Source: Carcharhinus longimanus (lineage: Eukaryota). Taken from it: a stretch of 64,000 bases of DNA. The stretch is taken from the NCBI GenBank assembly GCA_030264375.1, contig JASCQW010000081.1:71905233-71969232 (forward strand), written 5' to 3'. The notes under the pieces are model-generated. The model had not been told where the DNA came from and did no database searches. It saw nothing but the letters and a program-made list of their open reading frames with translations. Shown one piece after another: positions 8,706-43,858 of the stretch. The stretch's first letter is position 1. Every line of letters begins with the position of its first letter. Made by a program: the position numbers and the translations under genes.

Positions 8706-8770
8706 TTGGAGATGCCAGCGTTAGAATGGGGTAAACACAGTAAGAACCTGGTGTTGTGAGATGACTTACT
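8706..8770. mobile_element. Tiny Penelope pseudo-LTR remnant (collapsed inverted ends)
   Basis: ggagatgccagcgttagaatggggtaaacacagtaagaa (reverse complement of the PLE 3' end at 11960-12000) is fused to cctggtgttgtgaga...cttac. Confidence 0.65.
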
Positions 8771-10074: not shown

Positions 10075-10335
10075 CTCTGAAAAAGAGTCAAATGGACTTG
10101 AAGAGTTAACTCTGGATGGGATTCTCCAGCTGTGTGAGCCCCAAGACCAGAAATTCCCACCCAAGCTCAATGGACCTTTGAATGGACCAGCATATTTTCT
10201 GTTCCACCCACTATGATTCCTGCGGCAGGCCAGAAATGAGAATTTTGGCCTCTGTTTCTCTCTCCGCAGATGCTCCCTGACCCGCTCAGCTTTTCCAAAA
10301 TATTATGTTTTTATTTCAGATTCTTTTGCGTGTTG
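10075..10335 (+). mobile_element. PLE-derived short repeat (degenerate hammerhead + cagatgct...tttcagatt tail) with nested MITE 10114-10250
   Basis: ctgaaaaagagtcaaatggacttgaagagttaac-TCT-[MITE]-TCT-gtttctctctccgcagatgct. Related copies at ~17948-18044, 28227-28510, 30308-30380, 35598-35755, 52328-52450, 61435-61500. Confidence 0.6.
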
Positions 10336-11008
10336 CTCTTATATAGTGTGAGACTTTCTTAACAGCTAAAAGCTACCTAATTTTATCACTAATCCCTTCT
10401 GTGGGATTCAGAGGGGAGATGGTGGCCTTGTGGTATTGTCATGAGATTTGCAATCCAAAGATCAGGGGTAATGTTCTTGGGACCTGGGTTCAAATGCCAC
10501 CATTTGAATCAAATAAAATCAGGAATTAAAATTCCAGATGTCTCTGCAGTGCCACTGGGAGCCATGGCCACTTCTCGGATTGCAGCATCATCAGGCAGGG
10601 GCAGAAGGAAATCGGGGTAGGGGTGCAGAATTACTTTTAAGGGCCTCTAGTGAGCAAGGAGGCCTGAAGAGAAGGGACTCCCTCCCCTCATCTTGCCAGG
10701 CACCAGTCTGCCGGGTGAACACTTGGTTGATAAAATTGCAGTGGGCTGGGGCTGATATGTGGTGCTTAATTTTACACCCCAACTGCCATACTTCCTCTGG
10801 GGAACTGTAAATCTAGCCTGGGTATGCAAGACAGTTCAATTCTTTCATTCACTTTCAGGATATAAAATTCAGAAATAGTTTGACTGAACTGAGGGTCAGG
10901 GCCTGGGGCCACATTGAGGGTCAGAGCCTGGGGCCACATTGAGGGTCAGAGCCTGGGGCCACATTGAGGGTCAGAGCCTGGGGCCACATTGAGTGATTGG
11001 GTCACATT

Positions 11009-11107
11009 AGTGGTGTTTGCTACCAAATAAACCTGTTGGACTTTAACCTGGTATTGTGAGACTTCTTACTGTGTTCACCCCAGTCCAACGCTGGCATCTC
11101 CACATCA
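11009..11107 (+). mobile_element. Penelope-like pseudo-LTR 3' piece
   Basis: gtggtgtttgctaccaaataaacctgttggactttaacctggtattgtgagacttcttac...ggcatctccacatca; near-identical to 11903-12001. Confidence 0.8.
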
Positions 11108-11142
11108 GCACATTGAGGGTCAGAGCCTGGGGTCACATTGTG

Positions 11143-11508
11143 GTAAGAAGTCTCACAACACCAGGTTAAAGTCCAACAGATTTATTTGGTAGCACATGCC
11201 ACGAGCCACAAGCCACTTCTCGCCAAGGCCATCCCCACACTCCCACTTCTTGCCTTCAAACAACCGCACAACCTCAAACAGACCATTGTCCGCAGTAAGC
11301 TGCCAGCCTTCAGGAGAACAGTGACCATGACACCACACACCCCTGCCACAGCACCTCTGCAAGATATGCTGGATTATCCTCATGTGAGAACACCATCCAC
11401 CAGGTAGACAGTACATACTCTTGCAACTCGGCCAACGTTGTCTACATGATACGCTGCAGGAAAGGATGTCCCGAGGCATGATACCTTGGGGAGACCATGC
11501 AGTCACTA
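11143..11508 (+). mobile_element. Penelope-like element: inverted pLTR piece + degraded RT-linker/GIY-YIG fragment
   Basis: Translates to PTLPLLAFKQPHNLKQTIVRSKLP and YSCNSANVVYMIRCRKGCPEA*YLGET (GIY-YIG-type motif with an in-frame stop). Confidence 0.85.
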
Positions 11509-11564
11509 CATTGAGGGTCAGAGCCTGGGGCCACATTGAGGACTGGAGCCTGGGGCCACATTGA

Positions 11565-12002
11565 GGAATCTCCCAACACCAGATTAACGTCCAACAGGTT
11601 TATTTGGTAGCAAAGGCCACTGGCTTTCGTAGCGCTGCTCCTTCGTCAGGTGAGTGGGAGTTCTGATCACAAACAGGGCACGTAAAGACACAAACTCAAT
11701 TTGAATGAATAATGATTGGAATGCGAGTCTTTACAGCTGATCAAGTCTTAAAGGTACAGACGATATGGACCTTTAAGACTTGATTAGCTGTAAAGACTCG
11801 CATTCCAATCATTATTCATGTAAATTGAGTTTGTGCCTTTATATGCCCTGTTTGTGATCAGAACTCCCACTCGCCTGATGAAGGAGTAGCGCTCCAAAAG
11901 CTAGTGGCATTTGCTGCCGAATAAACCTGTTGGACTTTAACCTGATGTTGTGAGACTTCTTTCTGTGTTTACCCCAGTCCAACGCTGGCATCTCCACATC
12001 AT
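11565..12002. mobile_element. Penelope-like inverted pLTR pair (~390-bp palindrome)
   Basis: Arms ~11567-11755 and 11769-11958 are reverse complements around a 13-nt loop; each arm has a hammerhead-like CTGANGA...GAAA motif. Confidence 0.85.
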
Positions 12003-14847
12003 GGCCACATTGCGGGTCAGAGCCTGGGGCCACATTGCGGGTCAGAGCCTGGGGCCACATTGCGGGTCAGAGCCTGGGGCCACATTGATCTCTCAAACTT
12101 GAGCACTTATTGAAAATGCTGATTGACCACAATATTTGACAAGTACAAATTACAGACATAGTAGAAATATATTTGAATGAAGGAAGCTGACTTGTACTGT
12201 GGAGTGCAGGAACTGTCAGGTTGAACTGCAGCAGAATAAAATTTAGTAGATATTCTGTAAAGTGATTTGATTATCTTTATCCTTTGTAGAGTATACATCC
12301 TGAACATTCCCTCTAAATATAAAATGGAAAGGTATGGTCTGTGGAAGGAGTGGGCTTGCTGGGTCAAATAGGCTCTATATTAAATTTGTTATTTTATGAC
12401 TCTGACTAATCCATCCAATATGTGACAAGGAAAGCAAGAGTTTTTAGAATATATACTGGTACTACCAGTAATGCAGAAGCAAGTTGAAAATCAGCATAAT
12501 ATTTACAGGCTATTTAAATAATTCTCAAATGAATAGATTAATAATTTTGGTACACTAACAACATTCCATAGGTTTCCCCCTCAAGAAGCCTGGTAATTGA
12601 CCATAATCAGAAGTCTTTATCTCTGATGCATACAACGGAAACAGAGATGCAGATGATAAAAATCAAAGCCGTGTATCACATCCTCAGAGTCTGCCTGCAA
12701 TTGCAAATAACCCATGGGTGAAATTCCAAAACATCCATCAAAATAGTTATTTTCAGCTTGCCAACAATCTCATTCACACATTGCAAACAGTAGATCATAC
12801 AAGACAATTTACTGACAAGAGCTATTTTATAATAAGTTTACTTGTGCTCTGGGGACAGCCCGTGCGCATACACTGCAATGTGTGATTGGGTTGGTGCCAA
12901 ATTGCAGGCAGACACTTGAAAGGGTGTGATGTTGTTCCTACTGCGGCTTGTGGTAACTTTCTGAAGACAGGTTAGTAATTTTCAGGTCTGATTTCTCATG
13001 CTTTTGTATACCTGCGTGTTGAATGCTTCCAGGTCATTCAACATAAATAGACAGTGTGGAAATGCCACCCTCCGACTATCTATTGGCTCACCTTGGGGAG
13101 CTTTTACAAGGCAGTCTAGCAGAAGTTCAGCAATGACCTTGATGCTTGATATTCCTGAGGAGAGCAGTATTCTGTCATGTGGAATTAGGAGACAATGTGC
13201 TCCATTCCTAAGTACTTTCATTGTATATCCTGAATGAACCAAAATTTTGCCAGGCAAAAGCCAAAGGCATTTGATATGAAAACACAGATGTAAATTGACA
13301 AAATAAAAATAACATATCTGGCTGATGTCAGAAAATGTTTTGGATTTTTTGCTAACTGCAATTTTAAAATGATCCAGAAACAAATCTACTCACAAAAGAG
13401 AATATATTATTTGTGTGTGGCCCCCTGATTGCGTGAGGAAACTAAAATATTCATGTAACCTACAGCATGAAAAACACCTCCATAATTTGAAGTGTGTAGA
13501 TATGAACCAGTGAATGAAGAATGTCATTGATGGGGAGGAATGTGGGGTAATTCTTTTCCCTTATTCTCACCTCTCAGCTGATTGCAGCAAGATGTATTTT
13601 GGAGAAGCAATGTCTTAACTCCTTGAGTACAGTGACTTTAACAGATCCGGACAGGATTTCTTTTAAGTTTAAGTGAAATGAAAGGATGAATGTTTATTTT
13701 TCACAATACATGAAATGCGTACGCAACAAGCCCCACTCCCCAAACACACACGTAGACACCCGCACACAAGAAGATATGATTCCTAAAGATGTAACAAGCA
13801 CTTAGATGACTGAAAGAGTACTAAGTACGAGGTCGCTTGCTTACGCAGTCTTTAAGATAGTTTTTGAAACATTGCAGGCCTGAAGCATTCTCTCTTGGTT
13901 AACTGGAAAGTGTGAAAGTTTGACATTTCTGACTGTTTCAGATGACATTGTGGCTAAGTTCCTGTAGTGAAGAAATATAACCTTGTCACTTAAGCAAAAA
14001 AGTCATTCTTCTCTGCCTAAGGTGACTTTTGAGACAAGGTCCTACCTTGTGCTGGATAAAATATCACTTCCCTCTAATCTGTAACTCAGACTGACCCATT
14101 AACCTGAGTTTGTGGATTAGGCGTTTGCTCTGACTCCACCTAGTTTCAGTCATGTGATGGCAGTATCACTGTGGTCCACTGTTCACACAGTAGGTTCAGA
14201 CCAATGTAACTGACCCACAATGGGGGAATGTTTGATATCCCATCCACGTTCCAGTTATGATTATCCTCCCGAATGACTATTTAAAATCCCATCTTCATGG
14301 GACCAGCAAGTCTAACAGCCGTTATTAGTTTAAACCTCTTCCATTTGAATGGTGAGGGTGAGGGGGATTCAATCAGCACCTGTGAAGGCCATTTGCATTT
14401 TAACTTTCCAGAGATGGGATTTTACAGCCTTGCTCACCCCGAAACCGTAAAATCCCGCCCAAGGTCAGTGGAGCTTCCTGACCACTCTGTGGTGGGTGGA
14501 GAAGTAAAATGCCAACCATGTCTCTGCACAGAAACTGCAAAAGGAATCATCTGACTTTCTGGGGTCGTTGTGTGATGGTACTGTGCCCATAAAAGTAGTG
14601 TCCATCTCTCAGTAAGCTTTATAGGCATATAATGTGACCATAACAAAAAACACTGATGTAACTCCAAAGTGTATTAATGTGGTAACTGTGGAAATTATGG
14701 TAAGTCAGATAAGAGTGATGGGATCATCAATAAGTTACTTGGCAGCATTGAGTTAACAAAGGGACTCCAATAAACACCAAAGTAACTCATTGATAGAATT
14801 ATTGAGCTTCAGCCACTTTGCACTGACTCTACCATTTGTTCCCTATT

Positions 14848-20420: not shown

Positions 20421-20543
20421 GAGAAGTCTCACAATATCAGGTTAAAATCCAACAGGTTTATTTGATAGCAAACGCCACTAGCTTTTGGATTTTCTACCAA
20501 ATAAACCTGTTGGACTTTAACTTGGTGTTGTGAGACTTCTTAC
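20421..20543. mobile_element. Short palindromic Penelope pLTR derivative
   Basis: agaagtctcacaatatcaggttaaaatccaacaggtttatttgatag ... ctaccaaataaacctgttggactttaacttggtgttgtgagacttct (~50-bp inverted arms). Confidence 0.8.
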
Positions 20544-21261
20544 TTGGTTTTGATTGCCAGCGAGTGTCACATAGGAATTTACCAGAATTTTTTTTTCTCC
20601 TCCTGGCCCTGGGGATTTTACTATTTTTTCTCTCTCTCCCAGGAGGTTACAAAGTTGCAGAGTACAGTTGAGGAGAAAGTGTCTATCCATGATGTTTCAT
20701 CATGGTGTGATGCTAGGTGAACATAAGAACATAAGAACATGGCCTTTTCTTGTCCAATAATTATGTGTGTACACACACAGTTGGGCTTTGAAGCTGTCAT
20801 TTCTTGCCCTTGACTGTTGTAGAAGGATCTTACAGCAACAATCATCCAAAACGCCCGGAGACTCCGTGGTGTGCTGAATGCATCACATTCTCAGAATTCA
20901 CCCTGACATTACTGACGAATAAAATTGTTCCTCAGTTCCAAACAAGACAAAACTGCCACAGCCTCAGCCTGGAGTGATGATCTCACACTGCCAAGAGAAA
21001 TATAACAACATCATTATGTGTCACTTCCACTGATCACCTCGATTTTCAGACTGATGTTGTGTTGGTAGTTCAACATTACAGAAATGCGTACTCTTGCCAA
21101 CTAATTTGTGGCATGAAATAAATGGATTTGAATTTATAAAGGAGATACATTGCTTTCATGATCATTTGACTGAAATCCAGTGGAACAGCAACCTAAAAAT
21201 GAAGACTTTCCATTAAAATACCCCCCCCTAGGCATTCCAAGCACTCCACAGCCAATAGTGG

Positions 21262-22961: not shown

Positions 22962-25178
22962 TGTTACATACGGGGGTAAAACAGTAGAATTATTCCCCTC
23001 TTCCTACCGCTCAAATTACTTAAGACAGCATTTTGTACAGATGTGTTAATCCCTGTAATCATTAGGAACAGATAAATGATAGGTTTTCTCATACGTTTTA
23101 AAAGAAAGATAAATATTTATTGTTCAACATCTGACTACATATGCAACCACATCTACCAACACATTTGTACAAACATACAAACAAAAGAAAATATTGTGAT
23201 TACAAAAGATAACATGCGCTTAGGTTTGAGAGTTCATGAGTTCTTTGTGACTTTTCTTGGGGTGAAGACTTTGAAAGAGCTTCAGATCTGTAATCCTTTC
23301 TTTGATCCACTGAAGTAAAGGATCTCTAGGTTTAGGAAGAGGGATTCACTGTAGTTTATTGTTTGCAGTAGCTGATTTCTCTTATTCCACTCCAGTCAAG
23401 GTTCAACCTGCAACCTTCATCTGGTTCCTCAAATAGCACAGTCAGGGCCAACTTGAATCTATAAAAGATTGGCAAAAGGACAAGACCCTGCCTTTAGTGT
23501 TTCTTAGTAAGAAGTCTCACAACACCAGGTTAAAGAGCGTAAGTTCATTTGGTAGCAAATGCCACTAGCTTTCGGAGCACTGACTGCCCCTTCGTCAGGT
23601 GAGTCAGGTACGTGTTTCTTAGGCACAGTCCTATCCTTTCGTTGACCTTTTCGCTCTACACCAAAGATGTACCTTACTAAATCTCCTTATGAGAAACCTA
23701 GACCAGAACCTTCCAGCCCCAGTGGGGTTCTTCTGTGGCGGTGGGTCCAGTGAGCCATTAAAATTTCCGTCCACATCAGTGGGACAGGAAGATCCTGCTG
23801 GCATGAGGAGCTGAAAAATTCTGGACTAGTTTCTCTCATGTGACCAGAGCATCTTTTTCCATTGTCCTTACAAATGGTTTCTGATGGCTGGGCCATTGCC
23901 AGACAGTGGGAGCCCAAGTGTTGCTCATTCATGTACCATCATGAAAAAAGGTTTTTTTCACAACCATTCTTTTGATTTCAACTCTGAAGTTAGAAAGCCT
24001 GCAAACAGTATTGTTTCAAAGGGGAAGGTAATCTTCTCTGAGAACTAACACTCAACTACTCAAAGATAAGTACCTCCCTTTCATAATCTTTTAAAGAGTC
24101 TGTGAGAAATGGCACAATTTGCCTACAGCAATTTTTAATGGTTAAATCAAAAATAACTACTTGAGAGTCTCTTTAAAAGAAACAGGTAACACTTTATTTT
24201 CTAACTAACTGTAAACAGGTTAACTGAACTATTAACAAATTAAATAAAATACCATTCTAATGGAATGCTGTTTGGATAATTACCATGCCCACTTACTAAC
24301 ACATAAAAAAAATAACTTTTTAGTCACATCAAAATATAGTCAAGTTTGCTGTCTTCCCATATCTTCTTTTCTTCTGTTCTTGTGTCCTTCTGAAATGAAA
24401 TTAGGCTTTCTTTTAAAGACATAAAATGTGGCTTTTACACTGGCTGAGAATTGTCTGTCTGTGTCTCTCTGGCTGGCTGTTAGCTGTGGCAGGCTGTTGG
24501 CAGTGGTCTTCTTGTGGTTTCTTGCAGTCTTCTGGAGTTGGGAGAGGTTTTACACTCCTTATGACGTGAAAATCTCACTATAGGATTGGTTTATAAGTTA
24601 TTGAAACCATCAAAATTCAAATCCAATAGGCTGCTGTGATTCAAATGCTTATTTAAAATTGATTGGTTAATATTCAAAAACATGTTTTGATTCAAATGCT
24701 AAAGGCTGTTACGACAGCAACCCTGTTGTTTTGCCTCTCAATACAATGTTTCCATCTGTACTGGATTCTTGCACCTGTAGCTTCTTAGCACACAGATAAA
24801 ACTAAATCATCTTTTAAACAATTTTTACAACTCTTAGCATATTACCAGTATTTATAATGTTTAGAATTTTACTAACTTCATAATAACATTGAGAAATAAG
24901 TTTGCTGAATTACTTGGAGAAGGACAGCCATTAACCACAGGAAAGGCTTTTTACACCTTTTAATGACTTCTCAAAGATGTGTCCAGAAAGTTTGTTTGCC
25001 TTTCATGACAATGTCAAGACTTGTCCAGACATGAAAATTAGCTCAGGGGGTCTTGTCATTCCATCTCTGCTCCAGGGAAAGCTAAAGAGTCACCTGCCAT
25101 TTCAATACCATTTTGTTTTAAAGTAACATGTAGACTTTAAGTTTTTAGTTCTTTAATCCATATTGTGTGAGCGTGGCA
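22962..25178. mobile_element. Probable solo LTR / LTR-type insertion (~2.2 kb) with nested repeats
   Basis: Starts TG(ttaca), ends (gtgg)CA, flanked by gttag (22957-22961) and tttag (25179-25183), a 5-bp TSD with one mismatch; it cleanly interrupts a LINE; no ORF. Confidence 0.6.
23562..23603 (-). ncRNA. Minimal type I hammerhead ribozyme motif within PLE remnant 23507-23605
   Basis: Minus strand: tcac-CTGACGA-a-ggggca-gtcag-tgctcc-GAAA-gCTA-gtgg; core, stem II, palindromic AGCT stem III and stem I (tcac/gtgg) are all present. Confidence 0.7.
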
Positions 25179-35156: not shown

Positions 35157-35759
35157 GCCTGTGCTACTTTAAAGCCAGGTTGAACCTCCTAACAGGGAGG
35201 ATGCAGCAGATGCTGGAAAACATTCCAGAAGCTAAGTTGACCTAGCAAAGACACAGTAAGGTATAACATGACAGAGAGAAGATTCCATGATTTTCTGATG
35301 TAGCACTGAAGCGTTGGTATAGCGGGTAGAGAGGAGGAGAGAGAGTTTCTGGACAAACTCTGAGGAATCAGTACTAGCGGGTAGCTGTGCAGGTGAATGC
35401 CAGCTATGTAGGCCCAAAAATCTGGAAGAAGTGTCAAGAAAAATAAAATAACCTCACACAAGTAATAAAGGTCAGTAATTGTGTCTTCGAATGTCATATC
35501 CCATCAACTGCACCACCTGCCTCACACTGATAATCTGTTTTCATTTTTGTGACATTGACAGAGAGCTATGTAATGGCCAGATCAGCAGGGACATTACTGC
35601 AAATGCTGGAAATCAGAAATGCTGGAAATACACACATATCAGGCAAAATCTGTTAATAGAAAAATAGAGTTACCATTTCTGGGAACCTGAAACACTCGCA
35701 ATTTTTCTTCACAGATGCTGCCAGGATAACTGAGTATTTCCAGCATTTCTGCTTTAATT

Positions 35760-36539: not shown

Positions 36540-36742
36540 TACTCCTAGTTATCTGTATATCCCTAGTTATCTGCAGTAGTTATCTATATACCCCTAGTTT
36601 TCTGCAGTAATCTATATACCTCATTTATCTGTAGTAGTTATCTGTATAACCCTAGTTATCTGCAGTAATCTACAAACCCTAGTTATCTGCAGTAGTTATC
36701 TGTATACCCCGAGTTATCTGCAGTAATTTGCATACCCCTAAT
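36540..36742. repeat. Minisatellite of alternating ~32/~28-bp units (ccctagttatctgcagta[gtt]atctgtatac)
   Basis: About 7 units are directly visible. Confidence 0.9.
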
Positions 36743-42655: not shown

Positions 42656-43608
42656 TCGATAGCCCCAGAGAACTAATACTGAAACCGGGCAGGGAGTTAC
42701 CAAAATTAATCAAAACAATATAACAGTATTGAAGAACATAATGGCATTAAAGAGTGACAACCTCCCAGGAGCAGGTGGTTTCCACCCCTGTGGTTTAAAG
42801 GGAGCTGGCCAGAACATTGTACATGACTGAGCAACAATCGACCCAAAGTTCTCTCAATCCAGGAATCGTTTTTTTACATTGAACATAATGCAAATTTCAG
42901 TCTGCTATTTAAGAAGTGAAAGAGAGAAATGAGGAAATTAATGACTTGTTAGCTCATTGTTACTGGGGAATTAGTGGAGTCTGTAATTAAGGACAGGATG
43001 ACTGAACACCTCAAATATTTTCAGCTGCTCACAGAGAGGCAGCATGGATGTGGCAAGGGTGGGTCATAACACATGAGACTGCTTGAGTGTTTTGAAGAGG
43101 TGATGAAAGTAGTGGCAGGGGATGTCCATGGATGTTATATGTATAGACTTCCAGAAGTCAATTGATAAAGTGCCTCCAAAATGAGGCTGTTAGTTAACAT
43201 TGAAGCCCATGGAATTGGAGACAAATTATTGACCTGAAAGGGTGGGAGAGGGGATGAAAGGGATGGATGGGAGGGAGGGGGCAGGNNNNNNNNNNNNNNN
43301 NNNNNNNNNNNNNNNNNNNNNNNNNNNNNNNNNNNNNNNNNNNNNNNNNNNNNNNNNNNNNNNNNNNNNNNNNNNNNNNNNNNNNGGGGACAGAGGGGGG
43401 TACTTTGCATCAGGGATCAAGGAGGGGTGATATCTGGGGAGATGCCTCACTCTGAAGGACTCTTCAGAGTTTGGGAATCCTCTTCACCAGGATGTCTGAG
43501 CCCAGGAACATCCTCCCCATTCCCCTCACCCCCACCTCCCTTGCCTGCCCTGTGATCTCTCTTTTGCAAACTCTCACAGGCATCCCCTATCCTCCTGTTT
43601 CTGGGATC

Positions 43609-43858
43609 CCTGGACTTACCCTCCCAATGATCCCAGGACTTAATCTCCCAATAGACTCAGGATTTACCCTCCCAATGACCCCAGAGCTTACCCTCCCAAT
43701 GATCCCAGGACTTAATCTCCCAATAGACATAGGATTTACCTTACCAGTGGTCTCAGGACTTATCCATGCAATGGTCCCAGGACCTATCCTCCCAATGGTC
43801 CCAGGACCTACCCCCCCCACAATGGTTCCAGACTTATCCTCCCAAAGGTCCCAGAACT
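43609..43858. repeat. 24-bp minisatellite (ccaggacttaccctcccaatgatc)n, ~10 units
   Basis: Directly visible; produces the PGLTLPMI-type repeats in ORF 43471-43896. Confidence 0.9.

Follow-up and report, generated by a model that had tools for sequence, protein, structure and literature searches.

Three pieces of a Penelope-like retroelement in one register of a 25-bp minisatellite, and a loose, roughly symmetric target site of their family

Introduction

CRISPR arrays are built by adding one whole repeat for each unique foreign spacer, with cas genes nearby. Here we describe a repeat-insert-repeat pattern in an animal genome, that of Carcharhinus longimanus, which lies in a stretch of 64,000 nucleotides (GenBank assembly GCA_030264375.1, contig JASCQW010000081.1, positions 71,905,233 to 71,969,232 of the forward strand) that we analysed as a whole and call the window. 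The locus is a 25-bp minisatellite that is interrupted by three pieces, named p1, p2 and p3, of one family of Penelope-like retroelements. As presented in the text of PMC11167929, a Penelope protein cuts and extends both strands of its target and is predicted to be a dimer. Double insertions at preferred targets are known for the P-element, jockey, hobo and R1, and in the account given in PMC5932611 the target duplication is kept between the inserts and such targets match the consensus better than single sites do. How Penelope-like elements choose and cut their targets is an open question, called the next task in the text of PMC8557442.

Insertion register and target-site preference

All three pieces occupy one register of the 25-bp unit, and the place at which they entered is marked by a shared target duplication of 12 bp, G(C/T)CACATTGAGG. 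The original prediction had described three pieces of one Penelope-like family interrupting the array, each entering next to CACATT. We could uphold the structure with refined coordinates (Table 1), and the common position stands, although it is the 12-bp target duplication and not CACATT alone that marks it. Every junction of two units is an exact CTG-N16-CAG, a motif found at 0.07% of window positions. A symmetric matrix made from 45 other sites places the register used by p1, p2 and p3 first among the 25 possible (6.4 bits; runner-up, 4.5), and this score belongs to the top 0.06% of window positions and lies beyond the 90th percentile of real sites. The matrix predicts that the array unit should be duplicated at GCCACATTGAGG. 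The left target copy of p3 is exactly this sequence and its right copy has one change, while the left copy of p2 ends at the same base as the prediction and also has one change.

Such an arrangement might be sought in pure chance, given that the family is very abundant. Its last 15 tail bases have 18,660 exact matches in the genome, and 90 stretches of 1500 nt contained 10 family segments, or roughly one every 13.5-15 kb. With one relic per about 14 kb, more than 100,000 are likely to exist, so that a few triples within 250 bp would be expected genome-wide; for any one segment, the Poisson chance that two further segments lie within 250 bp is 1.4e-4 at this density. However, chance leaves both the use of one register of 25 and the matrix's first choice of that same register unexplained, and we regard it as exceedingly improbable. 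Elsewhere in the window the family is represented by three relics (8707-8746, or up to 8770; 20422-20549; and 23506-23604), where the original prediction had counted about four. One of the three is palindromic, and short duplications appear to flank them.

Across the genome, the family favours a loose, roughly symmetric site that consists of CTG-NN, the 12-bp duplication and NN-CAG. A CAG starts 14-16 nt past the tail in 5,397 of the 18,660 copies, or 28.9% as against the 6.5% expected from flank composition (4.4-fold). The motif was drawn up as a hypothesis from an unselected sample, the first 90 tail loci on one contig, before a second sample of 78 further loci was fetched. In these held-out loci, a CAG begins 14-16 nt past the tail in 26 of 78, and CTG stands exactly 5 nt upstream in 11 of the 27 duplications that were called among them (background 2.2%). 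Target duplications of at least 7 bp were seen at 24 of the 90 unselected loci and at 4 of 90 controls, with 12 bp being the most frequent length (15 of 52 called). The sequence-directed hotspot that had originally been proposed is supported. A literature search at the level of listings and of the papers cited here, which did not extend to most subscription journals, Repbase or the supplements of PMC11167929, turned up neither a comparable motif for Penelope-like elements nor a Penelope target motif that is multiplied by a minisatellite.

The cause first suggested for this hotspot was different, namely frequent breakage of a G-rich array, which would trap element cDNA because the element's end resembles CCACATT. 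This explanation is already largely refuted, and we consider it highly improbable. It can call on the fact that two of the 63 genome-wide junctions between a tail and CACATT are at the array locus. However, those 63 copies with CACATT 0-6 nt past the tail compare with 73 that have it at 30-36 nt, and the family therefore has no CACATT preference. None of the 90 unselected tails abuts an array called by Tandem Repeats Finder (TRF), compared with 0-3 of 90 at control offsets, on which grounds we rejected, at this sampling depth, a general attraction of the family to minisatellites. The junctions carry ordinary target duplications. Moreover, the element's CCACAT is retained beside a separate CACATT, and hence the two did not overlap. 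Repair-type capture of a genomic donor, which had also been put forward, finds no backing in these ordinary duplications or in the search for a source of p2, whose closest other copy among 40 scored of 4,580 candidates is 90% identical; a near-identical donor was absent from those scored.

The adjacency test with TRF missed one unselected locus, L026, whose array starts 62 nt from the tail. Its insert sits in register in the degenerate end unit of another 24-25-bp array, the consensus of which builds the motif, and L026 is thus a second, weaker case of an insert in register with an array. Among 11 array segments in 555 kb of fetched loci, only the two at L026 build the motif. About 110-245 nt past the tail, a different repeat interrupts the same array in that register a second time; this repeat has weak matches in the window at 10267-10323 and 35712-35747. 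Judging from L026, a second family may share the motif.

Another way to explain the preference is that the site is chosen with the help of pairing between element RNA and target DNA, and not by protein alone. The half-site CTG(G/A)C followed by T resembles the element's TG(G/A)CT past the tail, together with CTGTG at the tail-less start. Consistent with this, the matrix consensus resembles the bases past the tail, the base after the tail is a T in 68 of 90 copies, and the left junction of p3 is in register with the start of the inverted arm. Several observations argue the other way. At most sites the half-sites lie outside the duplicated DNA and so are not part of the primer. The start sites of the reverse transcriptase (RT) are not homologous to the cut DNA in the text of PMC11167929. 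In addition, the element's own CAG is found at +10 to +13 and not at +14 at all 12 left junctions examined, which puts it 1-4 nt off register; the idea that an insert rebuilds the CAG half-site was rejected on the same ground. On balance, RNA-assisted site choice seems decidedly unlikely. We judge as quite unlikely a related proposal in which the bases past both RT start sites pair with the CTG and CAG half-sites and set a 12-nt staggered cut, such that any tandem repeat of that geometry would offer slots that fill in register.

Origin of the three pieces

When compared with 224 projected pieces of the family, p1, p2 and p3 are, to judge by their variants, old and not rearranged copies of one insert. 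Outside CpG sites each is 5-9% off the family majority, which lies within the range of the family (median, 8%), and the shares of such differences (5/93, 3/62, 17/181 and 12/220) make the pieces similar in age. The two arms of p3 share five subfamily variants. Between p1 and p3, only two variants are shared, a subfamily base and a CpG change. Both are widespread in the family, at 30% and 27% of copies, and no rare one occurs in both pieces. By one position, p2 appears to derive from another subfamily than p1 and p3.

These data bear on the opposing view that one insertion was copied or rearranged by recombination within the array, or that the locus is misassembled. The two variants shared by p1 and p3 could be read in this way, and no contig or long read among the records compared spans the array locus. 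However, sharing is confined to common bases, sequence from the open reading frame (ORF) is present in p2 alone, and the inversion points differ among the pieces. As for the assembly, contigs of run X1 match the window flanks without difference (10250-10930 and 12165-12800), both array ends are present in run X8, which is from another organism, and there is no N within the array locus. A rearranged single insertion or a misassembly is therefore very doubtful, including the former as the original prediction had raised it against its own proposal. In organism C (run X6), there is no cover of 10896-10982, and a contig leaves the window at 10883 with 135 unplaced letters and no joint shown; this organism might have a shorter or empty allele.

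Hot sites and double insertions elsewhere in the genome

A preferred site that is hit repeatedly can also be seen away from minisatellites. In a dispersed repeat that recurs at several of the loci, 31 tail spacings are possible. On one strand, 25 of 40 hits use a single one of them, and on the other, 40 of 56 hits use two that are adjacent. The 12-bp target is identical in both orientations and accounts for 65 of the 96 listed hits. We take this repeat with its 12-bp hot site to be like a short interspersed element. Its copies in which the whole insert was viewed (L078, L094 and L182) are differently built, and L021 was placed from its 3' flank alone. Separately, L016 and L031 are independent inserts with an identical 3' flank, which suggests a second hot site in another dispersed repeat.

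At L161, L168 and L182, two differently built inserts share one target duplication, which is written three times around them without any minisatellite being involved. This pattern is a double insertion at a preferred site. Reuse of a duplication is probable or partly visible at L169, L171, L180 and L181, and at L169 it involves three pieces. All four tail-to-tail pairs are spaced 16-17 nt apart. A spacer of 16-20 nt is found in 11 of 20 pairs, although this bin was picked after the data were seen. Pairs of a tail and an inverted arm number 12 at 8-38 nt and 14 at the distant control of 308-338 nt, which rules out general local clustering or self-targeting. L164, L167, L172, L173, L184 and L189 did not prove to be genuine pairs and were dropped, and both the 12 and the 20 pairs include the hit in the window itself.

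The double insertions give some weight to the possibility of one concerted burst, in which several particles would cut neighbouring units together, or the RT would jump between target ends and new RNAs. The site preference would be the same and only the timing would differ. Exact reuse of a duplication between two inserts is known from the loci above, the pieces at the array are similar in age, and a burst would resolve the discrepancy between expected and actual hits that is discussed below. On the other side, p2 seems to belong to another subfamily than p1 and p3, even if by one position, every piece requires its own bottom-strand primer, and close pairs are not in excess over the distant control. 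We hold a single burst to be unlikely, and favour separate insertions at a multiplied preferred site, as set out in the Discussion.

Structure of the locus

The 25-bp minisatellite is specific to this locus. When the 25-mer was searched in the genome assembly (2.68 Gb) with up to 2 mismatches, a check that the original prediction had proposed, all 9 matches were found here. TRF reports array blocks at 10890-10993 (4.2 copies) and 12003-12087 (3.4 copies), and lone units begin at 11115, 11513 and 11538, between the inserts. The array predates the inserts, because the CACATT-GAG junction requires two units beforehand and because the two neighbouring units around p1 share a variant. For the same reason, and because duplications are at most 12 bp, we rejected the idea that the array units were created by the inserts' own duplications. 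Two more long minisatellites are present in the window, at 36546-36727 and 43605-43858 (31 and 24 bp), in which neither CTG-N15-17-CAG nor an insert of the Penelope-like family was found.

Table 1. Units and inserts of the interrupted minisatellite, in window coordinates. pLTR, pseudo-long terminal repeat.
Position	Strand	Feature
10890..10993	+	Left array block, 4.2 near-identical units; 3 junctions are CTG-N16-CAG (starts 10903, 10928 and 10953)
10991..11008	+	Shortened, altered unit; ends with the first 8 bases of the 12-bp target, in the T variant common to the unit at 11115
11009..11107	+	p1: 5'-truncated 3' end of the Penelope-like pLTR with tail; 5/93 non-CpG differences from the family majority
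11108..11142	+	Second p1 target copy, lacking one base, followed by a single unit whose end is the left target copy of p2
11143..11206	-	p2, left part: inverted tail-less pLTR arm; 138C, as against 138A in p1 and p3 (polymorphic family position)
11215..11509	+	p2, right part: broken ORF fragment (endonuclease region), internal end ~870 nt before the tail; 83-90% identity to other copies
11510..11566	+	Right target copy of p2 and two units; ends with the full 12-bp left target copy of p3 (11555-11566)
about 11567..12003	.	p3: standard insertion unit of the family, inverted tail-less arm and direct pLTR with tail
12004..12088	+	Right copy of the p3 target with one change (12004-12015), followed by the right block, 3.4 identical units that carry the same change

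In p3, the inverted tail-less arm extends to 11758 and the direct pLTR with its tail spans 11766-12001; the arms are 88% complementary and have subfamily variants in common. In p2, an inverted tail-less arm is joined to about 300 nt of ORF. The inserts had been described as pieces in both orientations, but the minus-strand parts of p2 and p3 are the usual inverted tail-less arms of the family, which are present in 32 of the 90 unselected copies. Of 43 inverted arms, 27 begin 32-42 nt inside the tail end. The pieces p1, p2 and p3 are all of one polarity, and the minus-strand parts of p2 and p3 are therefore not separate antisense captures.

Assignment of the family to the endonuclease-bearing (EN+) Penelope-like elements rests mainly on structure, because Pfam gave no match for 4 coding-frame pieces or 5 other frames of family copies. 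A 335-aa frame from a related copy, L148, did match atlas protein clusters named GIY-YIG/HTH_animal (score 0.95, 17 of 30 hits). Hammerhead-like core boxes occur in both arms of p3, intact on the left and with one box changed on the right. Folding returned no hammerhead, and an Rfam scan gave no hammerhead match and only weak miRNA matches below threshold. Computed folding predicts a long hairpin for p3 (-311.7 kcal/mol). Many other inverted copies would fold likewise, and the array consequently adds nothing to the potential of p3 to form a hairpin or double-stranded RNA. The array locus is an old relic and is likely inert.

Discussion

We think it probable that the locus records three differently built target-primed insertions at a preferred site that had been multiplied in tandem, and that the endonuclease likely reads the motif as a dimer. 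What we observed is the enrichment of the motif, duplications of about 12 bp, a copy of the motif wherever two units join, one register common to all three inserts, and inserts of different build. In the proposed course of events, a 25-bp duplication would have arisen and grown by slippage into an array of several units. Since CTG-N16-CAG is complete only where two units meet, a near-optimal site would have been multiplied in this way. A dimeric GIY-YIG endonuclease would then nick the two strands at positions about 12 nt from each other, each lying 2 nt inside a half-site. The bottom-strand end would prime cDNA synthesis at the tail (p1 and p3) or inside the ORF (p2), and the top-strand end would prime the tail-less inverted arm (p2 and p3). 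The outer blocks of the array would have expanded afterwards by slippage, as is indicated by the three right-hand units, which share one change that is also in the right target copy of p3. The array would thus be a passive row of good targets and not an acquisition system.

A number of points weigh against this proposal and should be kept in view. With regard to the array, a clean 12-bp duplication is found at p3 only. The right junction of p2 is ambiguous, being either a 7-9-bp copy after element sequence or a T-variant 12-mer with 3 extra bases, whereas at p1 the right target copy is one base short, the left copy is without its last four, and the left unit has no CTG today. No empty orthologous site was seen in the records compared. 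With regard to the motif, duplications could be called in just 52 of 168 loci, and CACATT 30-36 nt downstream had been the selection criterion for 68 of the 78 held-out loci. The complete CTG-N16-CAG is present at only 6 of the 52 sites with a called duplication (5 among the 25 called first and 1 among the 27 held out), so the motif is loose. Its CAG half is at +14 in 1 of 23 held-out sites and is spread over three positions, and the symmetry is therefore approximate. That the endonuclease is what reads the CTG/CAG motif is likely, and is a step that we infer. In the text of PMC11167929, the purified anole element PAc (Poseidon of Anolis) prefers ATT in AT-rich DNA and not a CTG/CAG motif. The duplications of the present family are not enriched for ATT/AAT (8 of 23, with 6.4 expected), and we rejected for it a preference of the PAc kind.

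Perhaps the most serious difficulty is the number of hits. A score of 6.4 bits corresponds to about 85-fold over background, or about 0.6% per unit at the present density, which makes it improbable that any one array of about ten units would be hit three times. The motif explains where the inserts are, and their number is not fully explained. Three hits in one array still need a site that is stronger than the matrix captures, open chromatin, or one burst.

Even with this caveat, we see two reasons why the locus is of general value. Thousands of natural insertions point to a symmetric motif and to a stagger of about 12 nt, which agrees with dimeric cutting of both strands and can serve as a concrete prediction for the existing in vitro system. 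Furthermore, repeat-insert-repeat patterns that resemble CRISPR can arise in animal genomes simply because the junction of a tandem repeat happens to build a target site.

Comparison with the described systems places the individual inserts among ordinary Penelope-like insertions, with repeated hits that come from a site preference already known for other elements. With PAc in vitro, as the text of PMC11167929 describes it, the family would share two RT start sites that define the tail and the tail-less ends, cutting and extension of both strands, and a predicted dimer. Unlike here, PAc cuts at ATT on the one target tested, and that text describes neither a CTG/CAG motif nor a fixed stagger. 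The texts of PMC3846280 and PMC8557442 describe insertions of EN+ elements of the Penelope/Poseidon type with the same anatomy: 5' truncation, a direct pLTR with an inverted arm next to it, a tail of 30-40 nt at only one of the ends, and short duplications. In the rotifer elements covered there, the duplications are 8-10 bp, whereas those of the present family peak at 12 bp. The preferences reported for EN+ elements in these sources are for AT-rich DNA or microsatellites such as (TA)n, (CA)n and (C)n, in contrast to a bipartite, roughly symmetric motif that flanks the duplication and, at this locus, a GC-rich 25-bp minisatellite.

The double insertions of PMC5932611 are matched by the duplication kept at L161, L168 and L182 and by an array register near the family consensus. 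Penelope is not mentioned in the text of that source, and its cases differ from the present one, where a host minisatellite multiplies the site and whole repeat units separate the inserts.

The likeness to CRISPR, finally, is superficial and lies in the repeat-insert-repeat look, as the original prediction had correctly maintained. No leader or cas gene is in evidence, and Pfam gave no match for 8 long frames of the window. The inserts, of uneven length (99-437 nt), are all pieces of one retroelement family with its 18,660 exact tails, and they were made with duplications of at most 12 bp and not by the copying of a repeat.

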